The notes beneath the pieces are model-generated. The model was not told the origin of the DNA and ran no database searches. It was given only the letters and a program-made list of their open reading frames with translations. This document shows, piece after piece, positions 1 to 30,757 of a DNA stretch of 46,838 nt. Position numbers and translations under genes: made by a program. Numbering within the stretch: position 1 is the stretch's first letter; the number at the start of each line of letters is the position of its first letter. This DNA is from Thermoanaerobaculia bacterium (GTDB lineage Bacteria; Acidobacteriota; Thermoanaerobaculia; Gp7-AA8): positions 1-46,838 of the forward strand of contig JBQCJC010000201.1 of the NCBI GenBank assembly GCA_051953135.1, read 5' to 3'.

Positions 1-203
1 CACGAAATTCAAGGTAGACTCGAGGGAGCTTCGACCACAGAGGCAAACATGGATACGACCAACAATCATGAAGGTCTCCAATGCGCGTTCTCATCTCTGA
101 CCTGCAGCGAAGATTCCTGTGGCCCTTGCTGTATGCGAAAAGTCGTGATGGGTGACGGCTCAGTCATGCCTCGAAAGACATGGCGTGACCTGCGGAAAAC
201 GCC

Positions 204-722
204 ATGAAATGGCTAATGATTCTGACCGGCCTTCTCTTAGTGCAATGCGGACCCGAGCACGAACGGGCAACCGATCTGACGCGATCGACACCACTGATTG
301 ATGGTCTGAGCAGTCTTGAAGCGCCTGAAACGATCAGGGTCGCGCCCCAGATTCGTGGGCATGTGTGGGATGTTCGTGAGCGTAGTCATTCACGCCCGTA
401 TGGAACGGACGAAGATTTTAACGAACTCGTCGTATTGATCCCGGACTATGTATGCAATGGTATACAGGGCGAGTTGCTATTGCAGTTTTATAACGACCGC
501 CTGATAGCAACTACTTTTTACCCGTCCGATTTCAACCGATTCTCTAAAACGTTAAACGACATTCGCTTCGACGTAGATGAATTCGGCCGATCGCGATACC
601 CAGTTCCTAACACGTTTACAGTTATTGTCGTCGGCACCGATGTGCGCGGACGTAAGTTCGTATCCTGGGAGGATCGCCGTCTGTCGGATGCGATGGACCG
701 ATGGATAACACGGAACTCGTAA
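204..722 (+). CDS. hypothetical lipoprotein-like protein (orphan, in lower-GC segment)
   Basis: 172-aa ORF. The N-terminus MKWLMILTGLLLVQCG looks like a signal peptide ending at a Cys (lipobox-like). No family recognised. It lies in the only clearly lower-GC part of the window, and a competing antisense ORF (518..946) overlaps it. Confidence 0.5.
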   Translation: MKWLMILTGLLLVQCGPEHERATDLTRSTPLIDGLSSLEAPETIRVAPQIRGHVWDVRERSHSRPYGTDEDFNELVVLIPDYVCNGIQGELLLQFYNDRLIATTFYPSDFNRFSKTLNDIRFDVDEFGRSRYPVPNTFTVIVVGTDVRGRKFVSWEDRRLSDAMDRWITRNS

Positions 723-948
723 GTGATTTGTTGGTCCATCTCGATAGGATGGGCGTCTGTGACTTCAGTGGTCGGATGCAAAGTAACCGTTGCCTGCGCA
801 TCAACTGCTATACCGAGCCAGGTTCCTGCTGGCGACAACTCGACGTTGTCCCAATCAAGCCAACGTGTTAGCTGAGATGCTGGAAGGGTGTGCAGCCTTG
901 TACATCGAGGGCTAATGGTTCGGCATAGCGCGTGACCACCTAACAAGC

Positions 949-982
949 GAAAGGCGTGACGGTTAGAACCGCCACGCCTTTC
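949..982. terminator. hairpin downstream of the cohesin-like gene (candidate terminator)
   Basis: Perfect 10-bp arms gaaaggcgtg / cacgcctttc, with an inner ggtt..aacc pairing. Starts 23 nt past the stop of the minus-strand gene 1005..1673. There is no strong U-tract, so function is uncertain. Confidence 0.4.
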
Positions 983-1004
983 GTGTGTGCAGCAGGAAGA
1001 AGCG

Positions 1005-1673
1005 TTAGCTCAGGCGGAAACGCAGTGCGGCGATCGCGAGCGCGGCGGCGAGGAGGCCGAGGGCCCACTCTCCGAGCGTCGGGACCGAGGAGCTCGTGAC
1101 GTCGATGGCGCCGTTGACGAGTTGCAGGCGTCCGTTCTGGACGGTTTCGATCGTCGCGGGCGTGCCGCCTTCGTCGGTGAGCTGCGTGAGCACGGGATCG
1201 AGCGTGAGCGTGATGTGCGTGCCCGGAGGCGTGCCCGGCGCGATGGCGACGAGGAGATGCGCGACCTGATTGCCGGGCAGCGCCATGTTGGACGTGAACG
1301 GAATCAGGTTCGTCGTCTCGTCGAAGTTATCGAGCAGCGAGATCGATCCCGGTGCCGACGGGCTGTTCTCGAATGTCGGCGTGAGCGGAGCGGTGATGCC
1401 CGCGCGCGAGAACGTGACCGACTGCACGGCCGAAGCAGGCGAGTAGCTCACGCGAATGCTGTACGACTGGATGCGTGAACCGGACGGCTGATCGATGCCG
1501 AGCGGCGTGCCGGACGTGTCGCGGATGTAGACCGGAACGTCGACGAGACCACCGCCGCTGACGGTGCCGACGGTGATGACGTCCGGCTGCACCTGGGCCA
1601 TTGCCGGAACGGCAATGGCCAGGCTGACGAGCGCGATCCGAAGGATGTTTGATGCTTTCATCATTCTTCTCAT
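1005..1673 (-). CDS. secreted cohesin-like single-module protein with IPTL-CTERM-type C-terminal sorting signal
   Basis: Signal peptide MRRMMKASNILRIALVSLAIAVPAMAQ. The beta-rich module (VITVGTVSGGGLVDVPVYIRD...IQSYSIRVSYSP...ISLLDNFDE...HLLVAIAPG...ITLTLD) matches the cohesin sequence pattern by eye. The C-terminus VPTLGEW-ALGLLAAALAIAAL-RFRLS is an IPTL-like motif plus TM helix plus basic tail. Starts 9 nt downstream of the giant dockerin-bearing gene. Confidence 0.8.
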   Translation of the reverse strand: MRRMMKASNILRIALVSLAIAVPAMAQVQPDVITVGTVSGGGLVDVPVYIRDTSGTPLGIDQPSGSRIQSYSIRVSYSPASAVQSVTFSRAGITAPLTPTFENSPSAPGSISLLDNFDETTNLIPFTSNMALPGNQVAHLLVAIAPGTPPGTHITLTLDPVLTQLTDEGGTPATIETVQNGRLQLVNGAIDVTSSSVPTLGEWALGLLAAALAIAALRFRLS

Positions 1674-1682
1674 TCTTTCGAT

Positions 1683-4600
1683 TTACTGATCGTCACGCGA
1701 GAGCGACGGCGCGGTGACGGCACGTCCGATGGACGTGCCGCTCACGCGAAGCGAGTTACCGGAGACGCTGGCCGAGCTTTCGCCGCCGACGAGCATCGTG
1801 AGCTCAGGATCGACGTCGAAGCGGGCCGCTCCGTTGGTGCTGACTTCGATTTCGGCGATGACCACCGAGCGGTTTGCATCGAGCGCGAGCGGCGCATTGT
1901 CGCCGAAGGCAACGAGATACGCGATCGCGTCATCGGTGCGGCGGCTCACTTCGAAGATCGGCTGGCCGACGGCGCCGCGACGCATCGCTGCGTCGGTGAC
2001 GGTGTCGCTCAGCTTCACGCGAAGCGAGATGCCCTGCGGTGCGCGCGAGCCCTGGTCCATCGTCAGGATGACCGGAACGAACGTGCGGCCGTCGCGCTGC
2101 ACGGCGGTGCCGAGGCGGAGAGCGCCGGAGAACGGCTCAGCGATCGCGGTGGTCGCCGCGGAGGTGCGACGTGCGTGCGGGGCCGGGCCGCCACCGAAGA
2201 GGTAGTTGATGGCGTAGAAGATGTCGGCCGGATCGACGTGACCGTCGCCGTTCGCATCACCCGACGGCATGCCCGCGGTGCCTGCCGGAGCCGGGCCGCC
2301 GAGGAAGAGGTAGTTGATCAGATAGAAGATGTCCGACGGATCGATCATCGAGTCGCCGTTCGGATCGAAGTTCTGCTGAACGTACGTGTAGCCGTTCGTG
2401 AGCGTACCGGTCGTCGTGTTGGTGTTCGTCACGACGACGTTCACCGCGCCTGCCGCATGAGCCGGCGTCTTCGCGGTGATCTGAGTGGCGTTCACGACGA
2501 CGACGTTCGTTGCAGCCGAACCGCCGAAGGTGACGGTCGCGCCGCTGGCGAAGCCAGTGCCCGCGATGGTCACGTTCGTACCGCCGAGCGAGGATCCGCT
2601 GTTTGGTGTAACGCTGGTGACGCTAACGCTCGCGACGGTGATGGTGACGTTTGCGGAGCTCGAAGCCGAGCAGGTCGCGGCAGTCGTGACCGTCACATTG
2701 AGCGCGACCGTTCCGGAAGCGCCGGCCGTGAACGTGATGGCGTTCGTGCCGGTACCAGCGGTGATCGTTCCGTTGGTGATGCTCCACGCGTACGTGGCGC
2801 CTCCGCCGGCGTTCGCGACCGACGCGTTGTTGCCGGTCGAATTCGCACCGACAGAGCTCGGCGCGGTGATCGTGGAGTTCGGGTTCGGGTTGATCGTGAC
2901 GGTCGTCGCGGCCGACGGCAGGCTCGGGCAGCCGGACGCCGTTGCGACGACGGTGTAATCACCGGCGGCGGTCGCGACGTACGTCTGATTCGTGGCGCCG
3001 CCGATCGGGTTGCCGTTGAGGTACCACTGGTTGCCGCTCGCGCTGCTCGACGTCAGCGTGACGCTGCCGCCGGTGCAGAACGTGGTCGGGCCGCTCGGCG
3101 TGATCGTCGGGGTGGCCGGAGCCGGATTGACGGTCACGGACGTAGCCGCCGACGCGGTGCTCGGGCAGCCGCCGCCGGTGACGACGACGGTGTAGTTACC
3201 GGTCGCGGTGGCGACGTAGGCCTGATTCGTGGCGCCGCCGATCGGGTTGCCGTCGAGGTACCACTGGTTGCCGCTTGCGCTGCTCGACGTCAGCGTGACG
3301 CTGCCGCCGGCGCAGAAGGTCGTCGGGCCTCCCGGGGTGATCGTTGGTGTCGGCGGGGCCGCGTTCATGGTCACGACGATCGAGTTCGACGTGGGTGACG
3401 GGCAGCCGAGTGAGTTGAGGACCGCGGTGTATGTGCCCGCGGCGGTCGCGACGTAATTCTGGCTCGTGGCGCCGCCGATCGGATTGCCGTCGAGGTACCA
3501 CTGAATGCCGGTCGCGAGGTCGGACTGCAGCGTGACGCTGCCACCCGTGCAGAGTGTGGTCGAACCCGCGGGCGTGATGACCGCGGCACTCGGCGTCGGA
3601 TTCTGCACGACGTATCCGGCGGATGCCGCGGAGGCACAGCCGTTCGCAGTCGCGGTGACCGTGTAGGTGCCAGCGGCCGTGACGCTGACGGTCGAGTTGG
3701 TCTCGCCGCCCATCGGATTCCCGTTCTGGTACCACTGGAACGACGTGGCGCCAGCGGAAGTCGCGGTGAGCGTCAGCGGCTGCGCGGGGCAGGCCTGATC
3801 CTGCGTACCGGTGCCGTTGGTCGTGCCGGCGACGGTCGGAACCGGCGGCGGCGTGTTGACGGTGACGACGGTCGCCGCCGACTGCACGCTTTCGCAACCG
3901 GAGGTCGTGTTGGTGACGGTGTACGAACCGGCCGCGGTTGCGGTGTAGGTCTGGTTCGTGGCGCCGCCGATCGGGTTGCCATCGAGGTACCACTGGTTGC
4001 CAGTGGCGCTGTCGGACGTCAGCAGAACGCTGCCGCCAGTGCAGAACGAAGCCGAGCCAGCCGGAGTGATCGACGGCGCGGACGGAATCGGATTGATCGT
4101 GACGTTTGCGCTGCCGCTCTTCTGGCAGCCGTTCGACTCGACGACATTGAGCGTAAGGACGACCGTTCCCGACGCACCGGCCGTGTAGGTCACGGACTGG
4201 GTGTTCGTCGCCGAGGTGATCGTGCCGTTGGTGATGCCCCACGAGTACGACGTCATGCCGGCCGGGCCGGAGGCGGTGTTGCCGGTGGAGTTCGCACAGG
4301 CCGCGGCCGGAGTCGGCGTGACCGTGACGCTGCCCGAGCAGTCGAGATCATCGAAGCAGATCGAGACGTCCTGAAGCTCCGGCGTGGTCGTCGAAACAGT
4401 AGACGAGAGATACGCCTTGTACTTCAGATAGCGCAGGCCGTAGAACTGGCTCAGCGAAGCGCCGGAGGTCGTGAAGTACGTGCCTGCCGTGCCATCCGGG
4501 CCGACGAAGTTGAACGGACCGAACTCGGAATTGCTGCCGGCGACCTGGAACTGGACGTTCGTGTTCGCCGGAGTGACCGCGGTCCACGTGAGCTGACCCC

Positions 4601-7364
4601 AAACCGGCGTCAGGCCGGCCAGCGGGTTGGCATCCTTCATCGACGAAACGAATTCGCCGTTCGGAGCGAAACCGGTCTGGATGTAGATGCGGAATCCGGA
4701 ATCCGTGCTGACACCACCCGTGAGGGGGATGCTCCACACGGTGCCGCTGGTGGCGCCGGCGACGCGCGTGCCGCCCGCGTAGACATCGGCGCCGGCCGTC
4801 GACGTGCCGCTGCGAGTCAGCGCGTACGTTCCGGGCGATGGGTTCGCCGTCGGACGGATGACGAACGCGTACTGCGTGCCGGCCGTCACTGTCACCGGCG
4901 ATCCGAACGTCGCGGTGTAGTAGCCGGAGGCTCCGCTATTGAACCCGGGAATCGTTGCGCTCGCGAGATCGGCGCCCGTCGGAAGATTGCCGCTCGTGGC
5001 ACGCAGCGAAAGCGTGAGATTCGGGATGGTGCCGTTGCAACCCGAGCAGAAGAGGTTGACGTCGACGCGAACGAGCTGGCCGGTTACGGACGGCGTGAAC
5101 GTCTGGCCGCCCCACGTCGTCGTGGTGATACCGACGCCGCTCGTTCCGACAGTTCCGTTCGACTGATTGATCGACGGGGCATCGAGAAGGATCACGCTGC
5201 CCGGCGTGGTGTTGACATCGGTGTTGGTCCCCGCGCCGCCCTGGAAGTCCGCCTGCGTCGTGTCGACCAGACAGGCGGTGGTTGGGGAGAGCGAGAGCGC
5301 GAAGTCTTCCGTGGTCGTGCCACCGTCAGTGACGACGACGCTCGACGCGGAGTCCGACGAGTAGCCAGCCTTGCTGGCCGTCATCGACGGGTAGGTGCCG
5401 GCGGGGAGGCCGGGGAACGAGTAAGCGCCCGTTCCGTCCGTCGTCGCGGTGCGCGCGCCCAGCGTGACGGTCACACCGGAGATCGGCGTGCCGCCCGGCG
5501 TGACGGTGACCGTGCCGCTGATCGTTCCGCCGGCGCCAACCGGAGTGCACTCGGCATACTTGAACGAACCGATGCGCGTTCTCCAGCGCTTGTTGGATGC
5601 CTGATCCGAGTTTGCGTACTCGTTTGCCATCCAGAACGTACAGCCGTCCGGATCGAGCATCATCGTCGAGTAGTCGCCCCAGCGGGTCGAGCCCGTCTGA
5701 GAGAAGCTGCCGTTGAAGAGCGTTTGCTCGGTCTGGCCGAAGGTGTTCACCGGATCGGTCGCAAGGCGGCCGGCGTATTTGATCGAGGGGAAAGTCGTGC
5801 TGCTGGAGGTGCTGTATCCGAGTGCCATGTTGCCCGCGCGATCGATCGCGAGGCTGGGCATGAAGCGATGCATGACGTTCGCGGCGTCCGGATCGAACGT
5901 CGCGGCCTGCACGAGATTCGGGTCGACGGTGCCGCCATCGACTTTGACCTGATAGAAGCGCGGCGCGGCGAAGCCTGTCGTGTTTCCGCGGCGAACGGTG
6001 TGCGGAATCCACAGAGACTCAGTGCCACCGAAATTCGTGTATTGGTTCTGAACCATCGAGCGGATCTGCAGAACGTCGAGCAGAGTCGCGGTTCCTGATT
6101 GCGGTGCGTTCGCGACGCTCTGATTCGGCCAGCTCCCCGTCTGGGAAAGCGGAATGTCCGGGCCGGTGAACGTCGACAACGCCGGATTCGCCCAGTCGAC
6201 ATGGAACTTGTAGACCGACACGGCGTTCAGGAAGTTCCATGTCGACAGATACATGTTTGGACGGCCCGGAGGAGGCGTACCGGTCTGGAGCCTCGCGTTG
6301 CTCGGGACGACCGTGAAGTCGCCGGCGCCGATGTCGAACTGAACGATCTGTACCGTCGGCGCGCCGGCGTACATCTGCTGCTTGTTGATAGCCCACGCGC
6401 GCGCACCCTGGAATGCAGCGCCGGCAGGGAAGCCGAACATGTTTGCGGACATGTAGATGCCGTCGGTCCAGACTCCGAGCTTCTCGTAGTCATGCAGACC
6501 GTCGTTCACCTGGATGGAGTAGAAGTTCCATCCTCCGCTCAGCGGGTTGCCGTTCTGCGAAACCGCGAAGCACTGGAAGGCGACCGGCGGATTGACGTTG
6601 CCGCCGCCATCGAGCGTGAACGCGAAGTTCGACAGAATCCAGCGATCCTCGAAGGTGTCGTAGAGGATGACCGGATCGCCGAAGTTTTCGGTATCGCACT
6701 GGTTGCCGAAGTTGCCCTGACTCATCAGGGTATCGAAGGTGAATGCGGCTTCCTGGAAACCGTCCGACTTGCGGTAGATGCCGACGGACGTATTGACTGC
6801 CTGAATGTAGTAGGTAGGACCGACGTCGCCGGTGGTGTCGGGCGGGCTGCCGGCGCCCCAGAACTCGCGGTCAAGACCGTCGAAGTTCATGATCGGAGCG
6901 GGTGCTACGGCGTTGGTCGCCGGCTGAAAGGACTGCGCATTCGCGACGGGCGATTGCGCGCCATCGAGCATGCCCACCTGCACCGGAGCTGGCTCAGGTC
7001 CCTCGCGCTCCGGGCGTTCCTTTGCTTTCGGCTTACGGACCGGCAGCGAGCGCACGTCGCGCACGCGGCCCGAGGCCTTCGTCAGCACGAGTTGGACCGG
7101 CTGGCCGATCTTGACGGGTTTCGGCGGACCCTGGAGCGCGGTGGTTCCGGGCTCGAGGTCGCGCTGCTTGCGCTCAGTCGAGACGCGGGCAGTGCGCTTC
7201 CGTGCTTCGCGCTCGCGCTCTTTGGCCTCTTCGCCTTCGCGTTCGCCCGTCTCCACCTGGACGGTCACTTCTTTGACGCGTTTGCGGAATGGCCAGCGAG
7301 CCAGAGCATCGGTTGCCACACCGATGACGGACAACACGAGTAACAGCGACAACAGTCGTTTCAT
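1683..7364 (-). CDS. giant exported multidomain protein: N-terminal propeller-like domain, CarboxypepD_reg-like domain, 5 Ig-like QWYLDGNPIGGATNQ repeats, IPT/TIG domain, dockerin repeats, C-terminal cohesin-like module
   Basis: Start chosen at MKRLLSLLLVLSVIGVATDALA (signal peptide; ATG at 7364..7362, forming an ATGA overlap with the stop of the upstream receiver gene). The 64 codons further upstream in the ORF are Arg-rich junk. CarboxypepD_reg-like segment: GTISGTVTVTPGGTPISGVTVTLGARTATTDGTGAYSFPGLPAGTY. IPT/TIG-like segment: VTSVTPNSGSSLGGTNVTIAGTGFASGATVTFGG. Dockerin pair near the C-terminus. The last ~170 aa resemble the downstream cohesin-like protein in pattern. Confidence 0.9.
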   Translation of the reverse strand: MKRLLSLLLVLSVIGVATDALARWPFRKRVKEVTVQVETGEREGEEAKEREREARKRTARVSTERKQRDLEPGTTALQGPPKPVKIGQPVQLVLTKASGRVRDVRSLPVRKPKAKERPEREGPEPAPVQVGMLDGAQSPVANAQSFQPATNAVAPAPIMNFDGLDREFWGAGSPPDTTGDVGPTYYIQAVNTSVGIYRKSDGFQEAAFTFDTLMSQGNFGNQCDTENFGDPVILYDTFEDRWILSNFAFTLDGGGNVNPPVAFQCFAVSQNGNPLSGGWNFYSIQVNDGLHDYEKLGVWTDGIYMSANMFGFPAGAAFQGARAWAINKQQMYAGAPTVQIVQFDIGAGDFTVVPSNARLQTGTPPPGRPNMYLSTWNFLNAVSVYKFHVDWANPALSTFTGPDIPLSQTGSWPNQSVANAPQSGTATLLDVLQIRSMVQNQYTNFGGTESLWIPHTVRRGNTTGFAAPRFYQVKVDGGTVDPNLVQAATFDPDAANVMHRFMPSLAIDRAGNMALGYSTSSSTTFPSIKYAGRLATDPVNTFGQTEQTLFNGSFSQTGSTRWGDYSTMMLDPDGCTFWMANEYANSDQASNKRWRTRIGSFKYAECTPVGAGGTISGTVTVTPGGTPISGVTVTLGARTATTDGTGAYSFPGLPAGTYPSMTASKAGYSSDSASSVVVTDGGTTTEDFALSLSPTTACLVDTTQADFQGGAGTNTDVNTTPGSVILLDAPSINQSNGTVGTSGVGITTTTWGGQTFTPSVTGQLVRVDVNLFCSGCNGTIPNLTLSLRATSGNLPTGADLASATIPGFNSGASGYYTATFGSPVTVTAGTQYAFVIRPTANPSPGTYALTRSGTSTAGADVYAGGTRVAGATSGTVWSIPLTGGVSTDSGFRIYIQTGFAPNGEFVSSMKDANPLAGLTPVWGQLTWTAVTPANTNVQFQVAGSNSEFGPFNFVGPDGTAGTYFTTSGASLSQFYGLRYLKYKAYLSSTVSTTTPELQDVSICFDDLDCSGSVTVTPTPAAACANSTGNTASGPAGMTSYSWGITNGTITSATNTQSVTYTAGASGTVVLTLNVVESNGCQKSGSANVTINPIPSAPSITPAGSASFCTGGSVLLTSDSATGNQWYLDGNPIGGATNQTYTATAAGSYTVTNTTSGCESVQSAATVVTVNTPPPVPTVAGTTNGTGTQDQACPAQPLTLTATSAGATSFQWYQNGNPMGGETNSTVSVTAAGTYTVTATANGCASAASAGYVVQNPTPSAAVITPAGSTTLCTGGSVTLQSDLATGIQWYLDGNPIGGATSQNYVATAAGTYTAVLNSLGCPSPTSNSIVVTMNAAPPTPTITPGGPTTFCAGGSVTLTSSSASGNQWYLDGNPIGGATNQAYVATATGNYTVVVTGGGCPSTASAATSVTVNPAPATPTITPSGPTTFCTGGSVTLTSSSASGNQWYLNGNPIGGATNQTYVATAAGDYTVVATASGCPSLPSAATTVTINPNPNSTITAPSSVGANSTGNNASVANAGGGATYAWSITNGTITAGTGTNAITFTAGASGTVALNVTVTTAATCSASSSANVTITVASVSVTSVTPNSGSSLGGTNVTIAGTGFASGATVTFGGSAATNVVVVNATQITAKTPAHAAGAVNVVVTNTNTTTGTLTNGYTYVQQNFDPNGDSMIDPSDIFYLINYLFLGGPAPAGTAGMPSGDANGDGHVDPADIFYAINYLFGGGPAPHARRTSAATTAIAEPFSGALRLGTAVQRDGRTFVPVILTMDQGSRAPQGISLRVKLSDTVTDAAMRRGAVGQPIFEVSRRTDDAIAYLVAFGDNAPLALDANRSVVIAEIEVSTNGAARFDVDPELTMLVGGESSASVSGNSLRVSGTSIGRAVTAPSLSRDDQ
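2178..2366 (-). other. duplicated dockerin-type Ca-binding segment within the giant protein
   Basis: Two EF-hand-like repeats: DPNGDSMIDPSDIFYLINYLFLGGPAP and DANGDGHVDPADIFYAINYLFGGGPAP. The two halves are also recognisably repeated at the DNA level (gaagaggtagttgat...tagaagatgtc). Confidence 0.7.
2885..4085 (-). repeat. five tandem ~237-243-bp coding repeats (Ig-like modules) inside the giant gene
   Basis: Copies begin near 2985, 3222, 3461, 3698 and 3951. The first ~95 nt of the 2985 and 3222 copies differ at only 2 positions (ctgattcgtggcgccgccgatcgggttgccgt[t/c]gaggtaccactggttgccgct[c/t]gcgctgctcgacgtcagcgtgacgctgccgcc). Each encodes ...C.GGSV.L.S....GNQWYLDGNPIGGATNQ.Y.ATAAG.YTV....GC.S..S....V. 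Confidence 0.85.
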
Positions 7365-7789
7365 GAAACCGGTCCTTTCGAGTCTGTTGCGAGTAATGAA
7401 GATGTGCGCCGGACTTCGGCGCAGGAAGCGTTGACGAGATCCGCGATCTCGACGATGGATTGCGGCTTGGTCAGAACGGCAAGAGCATGGTGATCCGCCG
7501 CGATCCGCGCGACTTCGGCGGAGGGATAGGCGGTGAGCACCACCAGCGATGCGCACGGCTGCGTTGCCCGCGCTTCGGCGATCAGCGACGGCGCACCGTA
7601 AGCATGCGCGCCCGTGAGATACGGATCGACGATCACCGCATCGAAATCACCATTGATCGTCGCAGGGTCCGTCGCGGTTTCGACATCCCAGCCCTGCGCG
7701 GCGAGGTAACGCCGCAACGAGCCGATCACGACGTCATCGTCGTCGATCAGCAACATCCGCGGTGAACGGCTGTTGGCGAGATGTGACAT
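7361..7789 (-). CDS. stand-alone response-regulator receiver (CheY-like) protein
   Basis: Acidic cluster LLIDDDD, phospho-acceptor context AVIVDPYL, VVLTAY and LTKP motifs, and no output domain. Its stop TGA overlaps the ATG of the giant gene (ATGA). An alternative start lies at 7756 (MLLIDDDD). Confidence 0.8.
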   Translation of the reverse strand: MSHLANSRSPRMLLIDDDDVVIGSLRRYLAAQGWDVETATDPATINGDFDAVIVDPYLTGAHAYGAPSLIAEARATQPCASLVVLTAYPSAEVARIAADHHALAVLTKPQSIVEIADLVNASCAEVRRTSSLLATDSKGPVS

Positions 7790-7915: not shown

Positions 7916-8560
7916 TCACCGATCGCGGTCCGGCAGCAGGGCATGCTCCATCGCGTACTGCACGATCTCCGCATTGCCCTTCAATCCCATCTTCTCGAGC
8001 AATCGAGCGCGATGCGTGGCCACGGTCTTCACGCTCACGTTGAGCTCCGCGGCAATCTGGCGCGGCGGTTTTCCCGCGGCGATCGAGCACAAGACCTGAA
8101 ACTCCCGCTCGGATAAAGAATGATGCGAGCGTTGTCCCTGAGGTTGCACGAGCTCCAGCGCGAGACTCTCCGCCATCGCGGGCGTGAGGAATCGCTCGCG
8201 GCGCGCGACTTTCGTGATGGCTTGCACGAGATGCTCGCGCGCGTTGCTTTTGCTGACGTATCCCAACGCACCGGTACGCAACGCGCGCATCGCGTACGAC
8301 GGATGCTGCTGCATGCTGAGAATCAGCACCGGCAGCATCGGTGCGATCGCGTGAATCTGCGCGAGCACATCGAGGCCTGGTCGATCGGGAAGATTGAGGT
8401 CGAGCACGACGACATCCCAGCCGCCACGACGCACGAGATCGATCGTCTCTTCACCCGATCGCGCTTCTCCGCCGACGGTGATGTTCGACGTCTCGGCCAC
8501 GATCTGCTTGAGGCCTTCGCGCACGATGTCGTGATCGTCCGCGATCAGTACCGTGATCAT
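7916..8560 (-). CDS. NarL/FixJ (LuxR-type HTH) response regulator
   Basis: MITVLIADDHDIVREGLKQIV receiver N-terminus, VVVLDLNLPD phospho-acceptor context, and a C-terminal LSEREFQVLCSIAAGKPPRQIAAELNVSVKTVATHRARLLEKMGL GerE/LuxR helix-turn-helix. The start overlaps the kinase stop by 4 nt. Confidence 0.95.
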   Translation of the reverse strand: MITVLIADDHDIVREGLKQIVAETSNITVGGEARSGEETIDLVRRGGWDVVVLDLNLPDRPGLDVLAQIHAIAPMLPVLILSMQQHPSYAMRALRTGALGYVSKSNAREHLVQAITKVARRERFLTPAMAESLALELVQPQGQRSHHSLSEREFQVLCSIAAGKPPRQIAAELNVSVKTVATHRARLLEKMGLKGNAEIVQYAMEHALLPDRDR

Positions 8561-10269
8561 GCGAACCTCATTTTCAACGACATCGGCAATCGCGCGGAGA
8601 CGATCGTGCCGCGCGTCGGGACGCCTTCGATCTGCACCGTTCCTCCGATCAACTCCGCGCGCTCGCGAATGCCGATCAGTCCGAGCGAGAGCGGATCGCC
8701 GATTTCTTCCGGCGTCACGCCGCGTCCATCATCGCGAATCTCGAGCAGCAACTCATCGCCGCGTTGTCGCAGACGCAGTTCCGTTCGCGTGGCGTTCGAA
8801 TGGCGCGCAACGTTTGTGAGCGCTTCCTGCACGATGCGATAGATCGTCGTCACGGTCTCGGTGTCTTCCGGCACCGCGCCGGCAACCGACACTTCGCATT
8901 CGATGCCGGAGCGCGCTTCGAACAATCGCGCTTCTTCCTCGATCGCGGCGACGAGGCCGAGGTCGTCGAGCACGCTGGGACGAAGCTCGGAGGAGATGCG
9001 TTGCACCGCACTCACCGTCGCATCGAGCGTCTGAAGAATGCGTTTGCTGATCGGCTCGACCGATGGCGTCGGCGGTGTTGCTTTGATGAGTCCGAGGAAA
9101 TCCATTTTGAGCGCGGTGATCGATTGTCCGAGGTCGTCGTGCAACTCGCGTGCGATGCGGGAACGCTCTTCTTCCTGCACGTGCAGCAGCCGTTCGTGCA
9201 GCGCTTTGAGCTTTCGCTCGCTCACGCGCTTCTGCTGATCGTTGTCCTGACGGCGATCGACCATGCGATTGAATGCGCGTGCGAGATTCGCGAGCTCGAG
9301 CGGTCCCTGCACGTCGGTCACGCGCATGTACGAACCTTCATCGGTCGTTGCCGCGGCGGAGACGAGCGCATTGATCGGCCGCGTGATCTTTCGTGCGACC
9401 ACGAGAATCATCACCACGACGACGAACACGATTCCGATTCCGCCCACCGCGCCGTTCCAGATCATTTCGCGAACCGGCTCCGTGATCATCGCGCTCGGCA
9501 CTCCGACGTAGACGTACCAGCCGAACTGCGGAACGCGCGCGAATCCGTACTGACGCTCGACGCCTTCGATCCCTTTCGTTTCCGCGACGCCTTCGCGCAA
9601 CCGCGCCGCAATCTCCGCGATGCGCGTGCCTTTGATGCTGCGGCCGAGCCATTCTTTCGCGCCCGCGGAGCGCGCGATGACCGTCTCGTCGCCGTCGAGA
9701 ATCGTCATGACGGCGCCGGGAATCAGCGCGTTGCGGCCGAGCATCTCGACGAACTCCAGCAACACGATCGTGCCGCCCGTTTGCGTGCGCGACGCGATTA
9801 CCGCCATCGAGCGTCCGTCGAACGTTCGTACAGTCGGAACGTTCATCGTCAGTCGATTCGCACGCAGCTCCGGCGCGATCCATGCCTGCGCGTATTGCGA
9901 GATTCCTCTGTTCTGCGGATCGGTGTTGCCGGTACAGACGAGATTTCCTTCGCGATCGAAGAGAAAGATGTCGGCGTAGCGTGGAAAGAAATCGATCGCG
10001 GCGAAGATGCTGTGGCAGGCGTCGCGATTCATGCCGGCGATCGCGGGACGCTGAGCCATCGCATCGAGGAGCGCAATCGATTCCGAGTAACTGTCGTAAA
10101 TGCGAGCCGCGCTCGCCTGCGCCATCCTCAGCGCCCCCATTCGCGCCTCGGCCTGTTCGCGCTCGACCTGCGAGATCGACACCGCGATCAGCAGCAACAG
10201 CACCGGTAATGCGACCGCGATGACGAGAGCAGCAAGCCACCAACGCAGGGATTTCGGGCGGGAAGGCAT
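8557..10269 (-). CDS. sensor histidine kinase (periplasmic sensor, HAMP, HisKA_3-type, HATPase)
   Basis: Start chosen at MPSRPKSLRWWLAALVIAVALPVLLLLIAV (first TM helix); the upstream ORF extension is low-complexity. H-box: RIARELHDDLGQSITAL. ATPase region: LTNVARHSNAT...DDGRGV...LGLIGIRERAELIGG. Paired with the NarL-type RR. Confidence 0.9.
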   Translation of the reverse strand: MPSRPKSLRWWLAALVIAVALPVLLLLIAVSISQVEREQAEARMGALRMAQASAARIYDSYSESIALLDAMAQRPAIAGMNRDACHSIFAAIDFFPRYADIFLFDREGNLVCTGNTDPQNRGISQYAQAWIAPELRANRLTMNVPTVRTFDGRSMAVIASRTQTGGTIVLLEFVEMLGRNALIPGAVMTILDGDETVIARSAGAKEWLGRSIKGTRIAEIAARLREGVAETKGIEGVERQYGFARVPQFGWYVYVGVPSAMITEPVREMIWNGAVGGIGIVFVVVVMILVVARKITRPINALVSAAATTDEGSYMRVTDVQGPLELANLARAFNRMVDRRQDNDQQKRVSERKLKALHERLLHVQEEERSRIARELHDDLGQSITALKMDFLGLIKATPPTPSVEPISKRILQTLDATVSAVQRISSELRPSVLDDLGLVAAIEEEARLFEARSGIECEVSVAGAVPEDTETVTTIYRIVQEALTNVARHSNATRTELRLRQRGDELLLEIRDDGRGVTPEEIGDPLSLGLIGIRERAELIGGTVQIEGVPTRGTIVSARLPMSLKMRFA

Positions 10270-10380
10270 GATCGTCGTGCAGTGTAGCGTTGCTCGCGGT
10301 TGTCGGGATGTGCGCACAAGCCGCGTCACCGGTGAAGACCGCGACGAAGAGAGAGTAAGATCCGCGCGGTCCAAAATCCT

Positions 10381-12738
10381 GTGCTCCTGATCCTCTACCT
10401 TGCTACGGCTGTGGCCCTGGTGTGCCTCGTGCGCTTCGTGCGTCCGATCTCGCGCCCGGCCGTTCTCGTTTTGCTCGCGATGCCGCTCGCGCTTCTCGGT
10501 GCCGCGGTGATCACCGGCGGCGTGTGGGGGCCGCTCGATCATGCATTTCAGGACACGCCGCTGAACGCGTTCGGCGCGGAGCATGGCGTCATCAACGCGG
10601 CGAAAAACGCGTCGTCGATCGACATCTTCTCGGAGTTTTTTCCATGGCGCCGCGTGGTGCAGTTGTCGTTGCAGAATCGCGAGTGGCCGTTGTGGAATCC
10701 GTACAACCTCGCGGGACATCCACTCGCGGCCGAAGTGCAATCTGCGCCGTATCTGCCGCTCACGTGGATCGCGTGTCTGCTGCCCGCGCCTGTGAGTCTC
10801 ACGTTCACCGCGGCGATCGGTCTTTTCATCGCAGCACTCGGCGCGTTTCTGTTTGCGCGCGAGCTTGGGTGTCGTGAATCGGCGGCATTGATCGCAGCGG
10901 CAGGATGGGCATTCGCGTCATGCAACGTGCTCTACATCCTCACCGCGATGGGAATGACCACCGTCTTCCTTCCGCTGATTCTCACCGCGTGCGCGCGTGC
11001 GATTCGCAAGCCGGGCATCGCGTCGTGCATGTTTCTGATGATTGCGCTGACGCTGACGATTCTCAGCGGGCATCCGGAATCGCTGTTTCTGAACGTAAGC
11101 ATCGGAACGATCTACTCGTTCTTCGAGCTCGCGCGCAATCGTGCAACCGCATTGCGCGGCATTCTCACCGCGATTCTCGCCGGCGCACTCGCCCTCGGCA
11201 TCACTGCAATTTCATTGCTGCCGCTCATCGAAGCGATTCCGCAATCGACCGAGTTTCGTTTGAAGAATCGCATGATGGGCGAGCGCTCGCAGCGCGTGCC
11301 CGGAATCGAAGTGCTCGCGAATCTCGCGACCGATTTCTATCCGCATCTGCACGTGCGTGAATGGGCGAAGCCGAATCTCGGACGCATCGGCGCGGAAACG
11401 GCGGCGGTGGGAAGTTTGCTGCTCGCGCTCGCGGTGTATGCGATCTGGCGCAGACGCAATGCGGAGACGTGGTTCTTCGCCGCACTCGCAGTCTTCTGCA
11501 TGCTTGCCGGTGCGCGATGGAGTTTGATCGCCGACGTGGCGATGCATCTGCCGCTGCTCGAGATCACGATGCTGCATCGCCTCGCGTTCTCCGCCGCGTT
11601 GTTCTTCGTGATGCTCGCGGCGCTTGGTGTCGAGGAGTGTTTGCAGCGCGACGATCGCAAATATGCGGCGATCACGATCGCAATCGTGACGGCGATGCTT
11701 GCGATCGGATTCTTATGGCTGCAGCGCAACGTGGTGCTTGCGATCACGCCCGCGGATTACGGCAGGTATCGCGTTTTCGCGGAGTTCTTCATTCCGATCG
11801 TTGCGGTGATTGTGCTCGCGCGTGTGCGAATCAAATTCGCCGCGCCGATTCTCATCGCGCTCGTGGTCGGACAACGCGCACTGACCGAGATCGATACGTT
11901 TCCCACGTTCGCGGCGAAAGCGGCGTATCCCGCGATTCCGTTGTTCGAGCCATTGAAGAATGTGCGCGAGCCGTTTCGCATCGTTGGTGAAGGCACCGCG
12001 TTTCCGCCTGCGACGAACATCATGTACGGCCTCGAAGATCCGCGCGGCTACGACGCGCTGACGCTCGACGAATACTCGCGCACGTACAAGCTTTGGTGCC
12101 GCCGCTACGGCATCTGGTACAACCGCGTCGACGATCTGACGACGCCGTTCCTTTCGTTTCTGAATGTGCGTTACGCGATTCAACAGGCTTCGTCGCCGAT
12201 TCCGCGCGGCTGGCGTGAAGTGAAAACGGATCGCGGTGCGCGATTGATCGAGAACCTGAACGCGATCGAACGCGTGTTCATCCCGAAGTCGGTCGAGATC
12301 AACGGCTCGCATCCGATCGAACTCGTCGATCGCATGGAAGCGATTCGCGACTATCGCGACTTCGCGTTCATCACCGCAACGTCAGGCAGCGGTGGTTCGA
12401 TCAACGGTCCCGGCACCATCAACCTCCGCTCGCGAAGACTCGGCGGCGAGTACGTCTTCGACGCGAACATGCAGCGCGGCGGATGGATCGTGATCTCGGA
12501 GTGTTCGTGGAAGGGATGGAAAGCCTCGGTCGATGGCGCGAAGTCACGCGTGCATCGCGCGAACGCCGCGTTTCTCAGCGTGTTCGTGCCGGCAGGAAAC
12601 CATTTGGTCCGCGTGTGGTATCGGCCGAAGTCGTTCGTTCACGGACGCATGATCACGTTCGCGACGCTGGCGTTGGTGTTCGCGTTCGCGATAGCGCGGT
12701 TCGCATGGCAGTGGCAAGCGAAGCGACATCCTCGTTGA
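10381..12738 (+). CDS. large polytopic membrane protein, YfhO-like (GT-C-type architecture)
   Basis: 785 aa, GTG start. About a dozen predicted TM segments, then a soluble C-terminal region and a final TM helix. The motif FFPWR...REWPLWNPYNLAGHPL recalls the YfhO family. Family assignment is by pattern only. Confidence 0.65.
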   Translation: MLLILYLATAVALVCLVRFVRPISRPAVLVLLAMPLALLGAAVITGGVWGPLDHAFQDTPLNAFGAEHGVINAAKNASSIDIFSEFFPWRRVVQLSLQNREWPLWNPYNLAGHPLAAEVQSAPYLPLTWIACLLPAPVSLTFTAAIGLFIAALGAFLFARELGCRESAALIAAAGWAFASCNVLYILTAMGMTTVFLPLILTACARAIRKPGIASCMFLMIALTLTILSGHPESLFLNVSIGTIYSFFELARNRATALRGILTAILAGALALGITAISLLPLIEAIPQSTEFRLKNRMMGERSQRVPGIEVLANLATDFYPHLHVREWAKPNLGRIGAETAAVGSLLLALAVYAIWRRRNAETWFFAALAVFCMLAGARWSLIADVAMHLPLLEITMLHRLAFSAALFFVMLAALGVEECLQRDDRKYAAITIAIVTAMLAIGFLWLQRNVVLAITPADYGRYRVFAEFFIPIVAVIVLARVRIKFAAPILIALVVGQRALTEIDTFPTFAAKAAYPAIPLFEPLKNVREPFRIVGEGTAFPPATNIMYGLEDPRGYDALTLDEYSRTYKLWCRRYGIWYNRVDDLTTPFLSFLNVRYAIQQASSPIPRGWREVKTDRGARLIENLNAIERVFIPKSVEINGSHPIELVDRMEAIRDYRDFAFITATSGSGGSINGPGTINLRSRRLGGEYVFDANMQRGGWIVISECSWKGWKASVDGAKSRVHRANAAFLSVFVPAGNHLVRVWYRPKSFVHGRMITFATLALVFAFAIARFAWQWQAKRHPR

Positions 12739-16682: not shown

Positions 16683-17665
16683 TGGCGCGCCGTGTCGAGG
16701 AACGCCGGGTTCCACCACTCTTCGAATTTCATCGAACGATCGAGCATCTTGTTGGCGACTGCCCAGTCGAGGAACGGCTGCACGGCGTTCGGATCGATGT
16801 GCGCATCGTCGTTGACCGCCACCCAGCACGCGCGGCGAATGATCTCGTCCGGCAGTTTCGTGTGGCGCGCGACGATCGCGACGTTGCGATCGGTCTTGCC
16901 CTGGTTGTACGTGTGCACGCCGCGCAGATACGCGCGCATGAAGCGGCGTCCGAGAGCGGGATCGTCCTGCAGCAGACGCTTGCCGAAGACGAGCAGCGCG
17001 AACTGATGATTCGGTGCGACGTCCTGCGCGGTGGCGACGACCTTCGCCCAGCCGTCGTGCATGATGCCGCTGAGATTCGGCTCGGTGGTCATGCGCACGG
17101 CGTCGGTCATGTCGCGCGATGTGGCCGGTGTGCCGGCGGGGAGTTGAATGAGCGTGACGTCCTGCATCGTCGCGCCGCGGCTTTCGACGAGCCGCGCGGT
17201 GAGGAACTCCGAGAGTCCGCCACGCAGAACCGCGATGCGTTCGCCTTTCAATTTGCCGCCGTTCTTTGCAATGCGATCAGCCATCGCAATCGGAGCGACG
17301 AATGCATCGGCGCTGCATACCTGGCTGGTGTGACCCTTGTCCGCGACGACACGCAGCACGGCTCCGCGTGCGATCGTGTTGAATATGCCCGAGCGCACGC
17401 CGGAGTTGAGCACATCGAGTTTGCCCGCGGCCGCGGCCGCGACCGCGGAGTTCGAATCGAGCTTCGCCACTTCGATCTCGATGCCTTCGTTCGCGAAGTA
17501 GCCTTCATCCATCGCGATCATCAGCGGCGCGTACGTCATGACCGGATTGAGATTCATCGTCACTTTCGTGAGCTTCGGCTGCGGCGCCGGTGCGGGCGCT
17601 TCTTTCCGGCACGACAGCACGACGAATGCGAGGACGACGAGCGCGAGTTTTCGTTGGACGTTCAT
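16679..17665 (-). CDS. ABC substrate-binding lipoprotein, NMT1/THI5-SsuA-like
   Basis: Signal/lipobox VVLAFVVLSC, then the pattern KVTMNLNPVMTYAPLMIAMDEGYFANEGIEIEV...LDSNSAV..AAAGKLDV typical of NitT/TauT-family binding proteins. The ATG overlaps the TonB-receptor stop (ATGA). Confidence 0.85.
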   Translation of the reverse strand: MNVQRKLALVVLAFVVLSCRKEAPAPAPQPKLTKVTMNLNPVMTYAPLMIAMDEGYFANEGIEIEVAKLDSNSAVAAAAAGKLDVLNSGVRSGIFNTIARGAVLRVVADKGHTSQVCSADAFVAPIAMADRIAKNGGKLKGERIAVLRGGLSEFLTARLVESRGATMQDVTLIQLPAGTPATSRDMTDAVRMTTEPNLSGIMHDGWAKVVATAQDVAPNHQFALLVFGKRLLQDDPALGRRFMRAYLRGVHTYNQGKTDRNVAIVARHTKLPDEIIRRACWVAVNDDAHIDPNAVQPFLDWAVANKMLDRSMKFEEWWNPAFLDTARQ

Positions 17666-19668
17666 TTGTTGAAGGCGGAGACGCGAATGCCGGCGGTGAA
17701 GGTGCGCGGCAATCCGTTGCGGAACGAGGTCGGCGTGAGCGCGAAGTAGTAGCCCTGATCGAATGCGTTTTCGAGCGTCGCGTAGACGTCGAGCCAGCCG
17801 CGAACCGGATGCGAAGCCGCGATGTCGACGATGCGATGCGCGGGAGAAACGGCGAGGTTCGCGGCTTCGCCGTACTGGCGGCTGAGCACGCGGCCGCGCA
17901 CGTCGAGCGTGGTGCCGCGATCGGCGCGGAACTTCACGCCGAGCGATCCGATGTGGCGCGAGACTTCGGGAATCATGTTGCCGACGATGGCGGGAACGGG
18001 ATCTTCGGTGACGGTCGAATCGGCGAACGTGTAGCCGGCGTTCATCGACCAGCGTCGCGAGATGCGCAACTCGCTCATGAACTCGAGGCCTTGCGCGCGT
18101 GCGGTGCCGAGGTTGACGGACTGGAAGACGTTGGCGGGCTGACCGTTCACGTGTGCGCGCGAAACGAGACCGTCGATCGTGCTGCGATAGAGATTCACTT
18201 CAGCGCGCGCGCGGTCGCCGGCCCACTCGAATCAGACTTCGCCGCCGACGAGTGTTTCGGGCTTGAGATACGGATTGCCGAGCACGAGACTGTTGCCGGT
18301 CTGGTTGTTGCGATACATGTCGCGCAGCGCGGGCGCGCCGAATGCGCGGTACACCGAGCCGCGAACGGCGGTCTGCGCGTTGATCGCGTAACGCACCGAG
18401 ACGCGCGGATCGAGTTGCTTCGACGATGCGGCGGGATACTCGGTCGCTTTGCCGCCGATGATCACGTCCGAGCCGTTTTCATTGCGGAAGATGTCGAGTC
18501 GCGCGCTGGTGAGTACTTCGATGCGATCGGTCGGATGCCAGCTCGTTTGCGCGAAGACGCCGATCGACGTCTGCTGCCCGGTGACGCGATTGCGTTGCGT
18601 CGTCGCGCCGCTGCGATTGAACGTCTCGCGGCTTTCTTCTGCTTTCGTGCGACGGGCATCGACGCCGATCGAGATGAACGGAATCGCGCCGCTGCGCTGG
18701 AACGACCATTCGACGGAGCCGCCGAGCGTCGTCGACGGAATGGTCGCGTCCTGCGACACGAATTCCGAGTCACGCGCGCCGATGATCGTCGAGTTGACGA
18801 GGCGTTCTTTCTGACGTTGATAGAACGCGGTGCCGTTGAGAAACCCGTTCGCGAACGTCGCGCGATGCGCGCCGGCGGAGCCTTCGAGCACATCGCGATC
18901 GGTGTACGTCGCGGGCGTGCCCTGCGAGATGTTGATCTGGGCGATGCTTGCTTTCGCGAATGCCGCGGCGGTGTCGCTGAACTTGTAGTCCGCGCGACCG
19001 GCGGTCATCCAGCTGTCGATCCAGCCGCGCGTGTCGATCGCGCCCGGATTCGGAACGCGCAGATATCCATCAGACGCATTGCGATTGTGTGAGAGGCGCA
19101 GTGCGAGCGCGTCGTTGATCGAGTGATCGATCGTGAGGACTTGCCGTTCCGTGGCATTGGTGCCGTAGGAGAGGTCGGCGGTGACGTCATTCGATTCGAC
19201 CGGCTTGGTGATGAGATTGATCGTGCCGCCGAGGGCGAAGTTTCCGAAGAGACTGGCGTTGCCGCCGCGCACCACTTCGACCTGACGCAGCGAGTCGAGC
19301 GGAACGCGCTGCCATTGCACGATGCCGCTGTACGGATCGTGCAGCGGAACGCCGTCGAGCAGCACGAGCGCGCGTGTGCCGCCGAGTCCGTGCATCGAGA
19401 TTTTCTGATTGTTCGGCGTCGAGCCGCTGCCGCTGACGATGGCCATGTGCACGCCGGGCACGGTGCGCAGAAGATCATCGACGCTGCGCACTGGCGCGGC
19501 TTCGATGTCTTTCTCGCTGACGACGGTCGCGCTCATCGGCAGATCGCTGACCTCGCGCTCGCTGCGCGTGGCGGTGACGACGATGGCCTCATCAACTTTC
19601 GGCTTGGGATCCGACGCGGGTTCGCCGGCGCCCAGCGCGAACGCCAGGAGGAAGGGAAACAGGAACAT
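17662..19668 (-). pseudogene. TonB-dependent outer-membrane receptor interrupted by a single in-frame TGA (18232..18234)
   Basis: ORFs 18232..19668 (plug plus barrel: VVTATRSEREVSDLPMSATVV, LLRTVPGVHM, MHGLGGTRALVLLDGVPL) and 17662..18198 (C-terminal barrel) are in the same frame. The 11 codons between them read FEWAGDRARAE, giving a continuous ...LVGGEV*FEWAGDRARAEVNLYRS.... Confidence 0.8.
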
Positions 19669-30658: not shown

Positions 30659-30757
30659 ACGGTCGTGGTCTCTTTTGCATACGTCCTGCTCTGCACCCGT
30701 CCGAACGGCGGTAGTAACACTACCATCGGCAATTCGAGATTGGGGATGAGGTGCAGC

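Follow-up and report, generated by a model that had tools for sequence, protein, structure and literature searches.

In the 46,838-nucleotide (nt) stretch of contig JBQCJC010000201.1 analysed here (the window), from a Thermoanaerobaculia bacterium of the Acidobacteriota, the minus strand encodes a giant exported protein that carries a dockerin near its C-terminus (the cargo) and, directly after it, a small exported protein (the anchor) that is predicted to fold as a cohesin and that ends in an IPTL-CTERM sorting signal. The gene pair is conserved in Thermoanaerobaculia, and on balance we consider it probable that the operon encodes a display system of the cell envelope whose two parts form a cohesin-dockerin pair. 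All elements described in an earlier note on this DNA, along with every sequence string quoted there, were found where that note had placed them on the minus strand, which carries five co-directional genes: a sensor kinase, a NarL-type regulator, a stand-alone receiver, the cargo and the anchor. The features of the pair that bear on docking and anchoring are listed first (aa, amino acids).

1005-1673, minus strand: anchor gene, 222 aa, with signal peptide, cohesin-fold module and IPTL-CTERM signal (open reading frame (ORF) and translation).
1596-1673, minus strand: signal peptide of the anchor, aa 1-26 (...AVPAMA followed by QVQ), read from the translation.
1089-1592, minus strand: cohesin-fold module of the anchor, aa ~28-195, predicted from an AlphaFold2 (AF2) model and Foldseek against the PDB.
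1008-1088, minus strand: IPTL-CTERM sorting signal of the anchor, comprising VPTLGEW, a transmembrane helix and RFRLS (PF18203, TIGR04174).
1683-7364, minus strand: cargo gene, giant exported protein of 1893 aa (translation, ATG, Shine-Dalgarno-like AAAGGA, Pfam domains).
2199-2366, minus strand: type I dockerin of the cargo, aa 1667-1722, two near-identical F-hand repeats (Pfam PF00404).
1686-2147, minus strand: cohesin-like end module of the cargo, aa ~1740-1893 (hhalign and a hidden Markov model (HMM)).

The dockerin repeats that had been noticed near the C-terminus of the cargo are recognized by the Dockerin_1 model (PF00404), which scores 28.6 bits against a Pfam cutoff of 22.9 and covers profile positions 3-56 of 57. 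The two repeats read DPNGDSMIDPSDIFYLINYLF and DANGDGHVDPADIFYAINYLF, with 171 aa remaining after the dockerin, and their calcium loops (D-P-N-G-D-S-M-I-D-P-S-D and D-A-N-G-D-G-H-V-D-P-A-D) have Asp or Asn at positions 1, 3, 5, 9 and 12. The duplicated F-hand segments of ~22 residues are kept in 34 loci, and Dockerin_1 scores above its cutoff in related giants as well.

The N-terminus of the anchor reads MRRMMKASNILRIALVSLAIAVPAMA, and AF2 models aa 2-25 as a helix. At the other end of the protein, VPTLGEW leads into the hydrophobic helix ALGLLAAALAIAAL and then into RFRLS and the stop codon. That this tail is of the IPTL-CTERM type, as the earlier note had claimed, is supported by both library models above their cutoffs, PF18203 on aa 196-218 (28.3 bits, cutoff 20.8) and TIGR04174 of NCBIfam (28.2 bits, cutoff 20.5). 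A C-terminal signal of the same type is kept in nearly all of 41 relatives, among which the motif ahead of the helix drifts between VPTL, VPAM, VPAL and IPLL, following the pattern [IV]P[TAL][LM]. The midcut_by_XrtH model of NCBIfam matches the tail weakly, at 25.5 bits where its cutoff is 45, and this match was rejected as a resemblance between sorting signals.

For the module between these two signals, the fold is the telling evidence. The AF2 model of the anchor has a mean predicted local distance difference test (pLDDT) of 77, with many of the modelled strand blocks at 90 or above, and when it was compared with the PDB using Foldseek, ranks 1-45 were all cohesins. The best matches are 6kgc_A (E 4e-9, TMt 0.78) and 5nrm_A (TMt 0.80), and the list also includes 2xdh and 2jh2, which are non-cellulosomal, as well as 2zf9 and 4dh2, which are anchoring cohesins; a CLIPPER domain at rank 46 was dismissed as an isopeptide-bond domain. 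By its predicted fold the anchor is a cohesin, in a family beyond the reach of the Pfam Cohesin model. A profile search of the full library places 397 clusters at 50% identity in this family. Homologues of the anchor itself number 894, and all of those with an organism name are from Thermoanaerobaculia or Acidobacteriota, with 59-100% identity to the anchor among the 120 matches listed.

Anchor and cargo also travel together. A scan of one genome per species yielded 48 loci (loci of relatives are cited by L numbers), and the six-frame ORFs of all of them were searched with the modules of the window. The linkage was counted on 41 anchors with a C-terminal helix and basic tail, for 38 of which the upstream DNA was readable. 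A dockerin-bearing giant adjoins the anchor upstream within 400 nt in 34 of the 38, and three further anchors follow a giant if frameshifted giants (L010, L020) and a spacing of 422 nt (L016) are allowed, bringing the count to 37/38. The gap between the two genes is 9 nt in the window (ATCGAAAGA) and 9-27 nt over the window and the relatives checked. In L010 (9219-10669) and L020 (3928-9917) the tail of the giant is split across reading frames, through either an assembly frameshift or genuine decay, and the end module of L010 is fused in-frame to the anchor ORF. The earlier note had held that its proposal would fall if profile searches and structure prediction gave neither cohesin, dockerin nor interface, if the tail failed the IPTL-CTERM model, or if the pair were never conserved together; none of these outcomes was found. 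Over the 34 paired loci, mean pairwise identity is 0.73 for the dockerin, 0.69 for the TIG domain that precedes it, 0.67 for the anchor cohesin and 0.45 for the cargo end module. A conserved interface between dockerin and anchor fits these values, since both are far more conserved than the end module.

From this we infer cohesin-dockerin binding, the identity of the two partners, processing at VPTL and a location at the cell surface, along the following lines. Both proteins would be exported by Sec, and the C-terminal helix would keep the anchor in the envelope; a sorting enzyme may then cut the anchor at VPTL and pass it on to the surface. The anchor cohesin would bind the calcium-loaded dockerin of the giant, and this docking would tether a stalked beta-propeller of ~1900 aa to the cell. 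The end module of the cargo could stabilize the dockerin, or it could take up the dockerin of another giant and so give rise to chains. Expression in this genome would probably be under the control of the adjacent dCache kinase and NarL-type regulator, with the single-domain receiver as a putative second phosphoacceptor.

Several observations weigh against such a display system. Pfam Cohesin (PF00963) has no match at E ≤ 0.1 on the anchor or the cargo and matches 0 of the 108 scanned representatives of the anchor cohesin family, and a PDB sequence search returned nothing for the anchor alone or for a 45-sequence profile of its family. Because the Pfam profile fails, the assignment as a cohesin is based on predicted structure, and because the family is invisible to Pfam Cohesin and to PDB sequence searches alike, the function of the anchor is deduced from its fold and its gene neighbourhood. 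The binding mode may moreover not be canonical, given how the loops are modelled. Four long loops of the anchor cohesin (aa 51-69, 90-105, 117-134 and 159-176; about nt 1146-1523, minus strand) are nearly invariant in 45 homologues, and their pLDDT is 52-68 for the first three and ~77-95 for the fourth. The dockerin also faces up to three candidate cohesins, namely the end module of its own giant, the anchor and a protein of ~620 aa found in relatives. Mirror-tree correlations of the dockerin with each cohesin-type module are all 0.3-0.4; the TIG control gives the same values, so the method is uninformative on the partner. Finally, no gene for an exosortase-like or other sorting enzyme was found in the window. 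The end module of the cargo lacks the long near-invariant anchor loops, such as RDTSGTPLGIDQPSGSRIQ, with the first loop (aa 51-69) among those missing, and these loops are candidates for a non-canonical binding surface.

The 'cohesin sequence pattern' that the earlier note had seen in the 222-aa protein is thus upheld as a predicted cohesin fold (the top 45 PDB matches) and fails as a match to the Pfam profile. Similarly, among the models with which that note had proposed to check the two proteins, Dockerin_1, TIG, CarboxypepD_reg and the IPTL-CTERM model all find their domains and Pfam Cohesin does not. The blindness of Pfam Cohesin to the family would suit a scenario in which anchor and cargo do not interact at all, the cohesin folds being ligand-binding or structural beta-sandwiches, the dockerin a calcium-binding stabilizer and the adjacency of the genes a matter of co-regulation. 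The domains that co-occur in the 108 family representatives are fn3, Big_3_5, FG-GAP, Dockerin_1, SLH and IPTL-CTERM; most relatives have fn3, Big_3_5 or FG-GAP, and a dockerin is present in the same protein in only 7 of the 108, as this scenario would lead one to expect. It would likewise suit the finding that dockerins of this type are present, across several phyla, on proteins with numerous different and unrelated sets of domains (NHL, FG-GAP, peptidase M12B and others). We nevertheless regard an absence of interaction as very unlikely. The fold matches single out cohesins from jelly-rolls at large, co-regulation would not need a linkage nearly as tight as the one seen in 37/38 loci at gaps of 9-27 nt, and the dockerin, like the anchor cohesin, is under strong constraint.

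A different partner for the dockerin is suggested by the C-terminal end of the cargo itself. The first hint was a MAFFT alignment of a cargo-tail/anchor chimera with homologues, in which end modules of cargoes were misplaced onto the cohesin of the anchor. Profile comparison with hhalign then aligned the anchor family with the cargo-tail family over 121 columns (probability 97.3%, E 1.8e-11), and an HMM of the cargo-tail family matches the anchor of the window at E 2.2e-11. These two results bear out the cohesin-like module that the earlier note had ascribed to the cargo, and by profile comparison the end module is a diverged homologue of the anchor cohesin. No further cohesin or dockerin protein was detected in the window.

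As the dockerin is always trailed by this cohesin homologue, after a linker of ~18 aa, it could bind the end module of its own giant, either in cis as a dockerin-cohesin didomain or between molecules as head-to-tail polymers, with the anchor cohesin binding some other ligand. The distant loci L047-L049 retain the dockerin-cohesin unit, with an end module nearer to the anchor cohesin, and the dockerin of L050 is without an end module. Furthermore, proteins with both a cohesin and a dockerin are said to occur in Archaeoglobus fulgidus, the source of the fold match 2xdh. Within the tail, conservation is lowest in the end module (0.45 versus 0.73 for the dockerin), a mild argument against this arrangement, which also leaves without an account the anchored cohesin gene that follows the giant in 37 of the 38 loci. 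We therefore judge it rather unlikely and prefer the anchor as the docking partner.

Docking to the anchor could also take place elsewhere than at the surface. If the IPTL-CTERM helix stays unprocessed, the cohesin would sit on the periplasmic face of the inner membrane and capture the giant during export or assembly. The topology of the tail is that of an ordinary C-terminal membrane anchor, and no sorting enzyme is known or is seen near the operon in the window; the searchable literature has no description of the enzyme that processes IPTL-CTERM proteins or of their destination. This placement appears unlikely to us. Conservation of the motif [IV]P[TAL][LM] ahead of the helix points to recognition by an enzyme rather than to a plain helix, and in another diderm, Methylomirabilis lanthanidiphila, the immunolocalized protein mela_00855, which carries an IPTL-CTERM domain, forms the outermost surface layer (S-layer) (PMC8671808). 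Because mela_00855 is an S-layer protein, IPTL-CTERM proteins can reach the outermost layer of a diderm cell (PMC8671808). As in PEP-CTERM-type signals, the resemblance of mela_00855 to the anchor lies in an N-terminal signal peptide combined with a C-terminal motif, helix and basic tail; the passenger there is a self-assembling S-layer, whereas here it is a docking module.

What the two-part system would display is the remainder of the cargo. The 1893 aa of the whole cargo are counted from an ATG that precedes the signal-peptide-like MKRLLSLLLVLSVIGVATDALA and has AAAGGA 8 nt 5' of it. Upstream of the dockerin, the following parts were delimited.

5529-6824, minus strand: head, aa ~181-612, a predicted beta-propeller of a widespread uncharacterized family (AF2, homologue search).
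5292-5525, minus strand: CarboxypepD_reg domain (PF13620), aa 614-691 (Pfam, 54.1 bits).
4290-5291, minus strand: middle domain, aa ~692-1025, conserved together with the head in related giants.
2643-4283, minus strand: stalk of Ig_7/PKD-like repeats, aa 1028-1574 (Pfam Ig_7, PKD_6 and K319L-like_PKD).
2382-2624, minus strand: TIG/IPT domain (PF01833), aa 1581-1661 (Pfam, 54.9 bits).

Neither the head nor the middle domain has a Pfam match or a sequence relative in the PDB. At least 4153 homologues, none with an informative name, were found for aa ~135-612 (5529-6960, minus strand), in Acidobacteriota, Gamma- and Betaproteobacteria, Verrucomicrobia, Anaerolineae and Deltaproteobacteria; those among the 120 matches listed are 53-80% identical. 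AF2 models the head as a beta-propeller (pLDDT 88.8, predicted TM-score (pTM) 0.89), for which Foldseek retrieves generic propellers only, at a TM-score of at most 0.5 (sialidases, glycoside hydrolases (GH) of families GH33 and GH43, integrins and semaphorins). Asp, Arg, Tyr and Glu residues are invariant at many positions of the head, as would fit an enzyme or a specific ligand site. The stalk repeats match the grappling-hook protein GhpA of Aureispira (9flp_A) at E 2e-86, which supports a fibre-like stalk and nothing beyond. GhpA likewise has a long stalk of Ig_7-type (CHU_C-associated) repeats with a distal head, yet the likeness is confined to the repeats, as its head and attachment are unrelated and so is the dockerin tail.

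The absence of a GH or a carbohydrate-binding module (CBM), asserted in the earlier note, holds as far as family assignment goes: the Pfam scan found no GH family and no CBM family on these proteins. For GH activity the absence is unproven, as the head weakly resembles sialidase and GH43 propellers at that low TM-score. That note's further conclusion that the system is not a cellulosome is supported as regards the scaffoldin, which in a cellulosome has multiple cohesins and a CBM; the proteins here have a single cohesin-fold module each, and no CBM family was matched.

Among the relatives, the giants share one tail, consisting of immunoglobulin (Ig) repeats, TIG, dockerin and cohesin-like module, and vary in their heads. 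Most have the head and middle domain of the window; in others the head consists instead of Kelch propellers (L012), Calx-beta (L034) or a lamin-tail domain (LTD; L032). Units of giant and anchor are tandemly duplicated in L003 and L018, and a second giant lies beside a single anchor in L016 and L025. In 22 of 39 loci a third gene, which the window lacks, stands 3' of the anchor and encodes the protein of ~620 aa (for example L001, 10666-12537). This protein has a signal peptide, an N-terminal paralogue of the anchor cohesin, regions resembling Ig and FN3 domains and, at its C-terminus, a domain without assignment. It lacks a membrane tail, is not matched by Pfam and is a further candidate partner for the dockerin.

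More distant loci differ in layout. In the Thermoanaerobaculia loci L047 (1-14781), L048 (4326-14772) and L049 (3125-14257), the proteins have an N-terminal cohesin, ~900 aa, a dockerin and a C-terminal cohesin, an arrangement that looks suited to head-to-tail chains. In L047 and L048 such genes stand in tandem and are followed by one for a small cohesin protein without a membrane tail, while L050 (4431-13489) encodes dockerin proteins without a detected end module. An anchor-like cohesin, 57% identical to the anchor, is encoded at L040 (9854-10600) in a metagenome-assembled genome labelled Rhodanobacteraceae, with neither an adjoining giant nor a membrane tail, and may reflect a binning error or horizontal transfer.

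Three genes upstream of the cargo and a hairpin past the anchor complete the locus.

7361-7789, minus strand: stand-alone receiver, 142 aa (Pfam Response_reg, signature residues).
7916-8560, minus strand: NarL/LuxR-type response regulator with Response_reg and GerE (Pfam, 90.8 and 62.2 bits).
8557-10740, minus strand: sensor histidine kinase with dCache (weakly), HAMP, HisKA_3 and HATPase_c (Pfam; maximal ORF).
948-983, minus strand: perfect 16-bp hairpin, 22 nt past the anchor stop (RNA folding).

The receiver scores 28.8 bits (E 1.5e-6) with Pfam Response_reg (PF00072), slightly below the cutoff of 30.2. Its acidic pair, phosphoacceptor Asp, Thr and Lys are kept in 8 orthologues, in the motifs LLIDDDD, VVDPYL, LTAY and LTKPQ, and on these residues it appears to be a genuine, functional-looking receiver. 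Its stop codon overlaps the start of the cargo as ATGA, and overlaps of this kind are ordinary in operons. The overlap of receiver and cargo described in the earlier note is real here and not a general feature: among 27 Thermoanaerobaculia loci with a complete giant N-terminus, a receiver is directly 5' of the giant in about 8, and while the two genes overlap by 1 nt in L001, ~200 nt separate them in L003. Accordingly, of the receiver/cargo/anchor unit whose synteny that note had wished to see checked, cargo and anchor stay together (37/38 loci) and the receiver does not (~8/27). The receiver and its coupling to the cargo are an optional regulatory accessory and do not define the system.

The kinase and the NarL-type regulator are 5' of the receiver in most of those ~8 loci. 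In the window, the pair reported upstream on the same strand agrees with its Pfam domains and has the composition of the NarL/LuxR class, a HisKA_3-type kinase (HisKA_3 48.9 bits, HATPase_c 52.9 bits) with a Response_reg and GerE regulator. In NCBIfam, the regulator is closest to UvrY/GacA, MctR and NarL, all below their equivalog cutoffs. The kinase orthologue in L001 was called at 570 aa, and the true start of the kinase is probably downstream of the maximal-ORF start.

The hairpin at 948-983 (dG -36.6 kcal/mol, z = -5.95, with 0 of 200 shuffles equally stable) probably marks the end of the operon. As the hairpin is not followed by a T-run, a terminator scan passed over it, and scans of the window for promoters and terminators gave chance-level results only. 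Within window positions 1-1000, where relatives have the gene for the ~620-aa protein, the window has a stretch of lower GC content (0.59 over the first 2 kb), which may be a replacement or an insertion. An ORF at 204-722 on the plus strand (172 aa), with the lipoprotein-like N-terminus MKWLMILTGLLLVQC, is unrelated to the operon and has no Pfam or NCBIfam match.

Elsewhere in the window, a TonB-dependent receptor (Plug and beta-barrel) at 17662-19668 on the minus strand contains a single in-frame stop (LVGGEV, stop, FEWAGD), which could indicate a pseudogene, a sequencing error or a recoded codon. Two Sortilin/BNR-repeat proteins of ~1100 aa and an M6 (InhA-like) peptidase of 1299 aa with MAM-like and CARDB domains are encoded at 24374-27670 (minus strand), 30665-34564 (plus strand) and 34686-37913 (plus strand). 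Dockerins, cohesins and C-terminal sorting tails are absent from all three proteins.

Close parallels to the proposed system are found in cellulosomes. ScaE of Ruminococcus flavefaciens consists of one cohesin with a C-terminal LPXTG sortase signal. Like this and other cellulosomal single-cohesin scaffoldins, such as the SLH-anchored proteins of Clostridium thermocellum, the anchor is a small exported cohesin with an envelope-anchoring signal and a large dockerin partner encoded alongside; the cohesins of ScaE (2zf9) and of C. thermocellum OlpC (4dh2) are among its fold matches, and its tripartite signal has the same layout of motif, helix and basic tail as an LPXTG signal. Unlike those scaffoldins, it is found in a diderm acidobacterial host and has IPTL-CTERM in place of LPXTG or SLH. 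The anchor cohesin is also too diverged for the Pfam model, the cargo has no detected carbohydrate-active enzyme or CBM, and there is no scaffoldin with multiple cohesins. Single-cohesin anchoring to the envelope is thus no new principle, being the logic of the cellulosome in a new host and with a new anchor.

Non-cellulosomal cohesin and dockerin modules were reportedly surveyed by Peer et al. in 2009. Two non-cellulosomal modules, the cohesin 2xdh of A. fulgidus and the cohesin-like module 2jh2 from a Clostridium perfringens toxin complex, are fold matches of the anchor. As in the non-cellulosomal systems, the modules here are low in copy, lie outside cellulose degradation and are borne by proteins of the PKD/TIG type. 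The placement of a cohesin homologue directly after the dockerin sets the cargo apart from its cellulosomal and non-cellulosomal analogues alike. The amylosome of Ruminococcus bromii is one such non-cellulosomal cohesin-dockerin system (PMC4611034). The searchable literature presents none of these systems as an operon conserved throughout a class, with an IPTL-CTERM anchor, a dockerin-cohesin tail and swappable heads, and contains no account of such a system in Acidobacteria.

In many non-cellulolytic bacteria, large secreted proteins commonly bear dockerin-like modules, mostly without a known cohesin partner. The giant and the adjoining cohesin-fold protein provide a concrete, testable partner pair for these otherwise orphan dockerins. 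Surveys of cohesins that use the Pfam model undercount, since this family, with about 400 sequence clusters, escapes it. The anchor is publicly annotated as 'hypothetical' or as 'IPTL-CTERM sorting domain-containing'. It is also a simple and highly conserved substrate for studies of IPTL-CTERM sorting. Tentatively, and with more doubt than attaches to the display system itself, Thermoanaerobaculia could possess a class-wide, modular 'plug-in' system, in which an IPTL-CTERM-sorted cohesin socket receives interchangeable giant fibres and extra cohesins extend these into chains or branches. If so, the 'orphan' dockerins that are widespread in diderm bacteria would gain a first defined cohesin partner, and the uncharacterized IPTL-CTERM sorting pathway a first defined pair of cargo and anchor.

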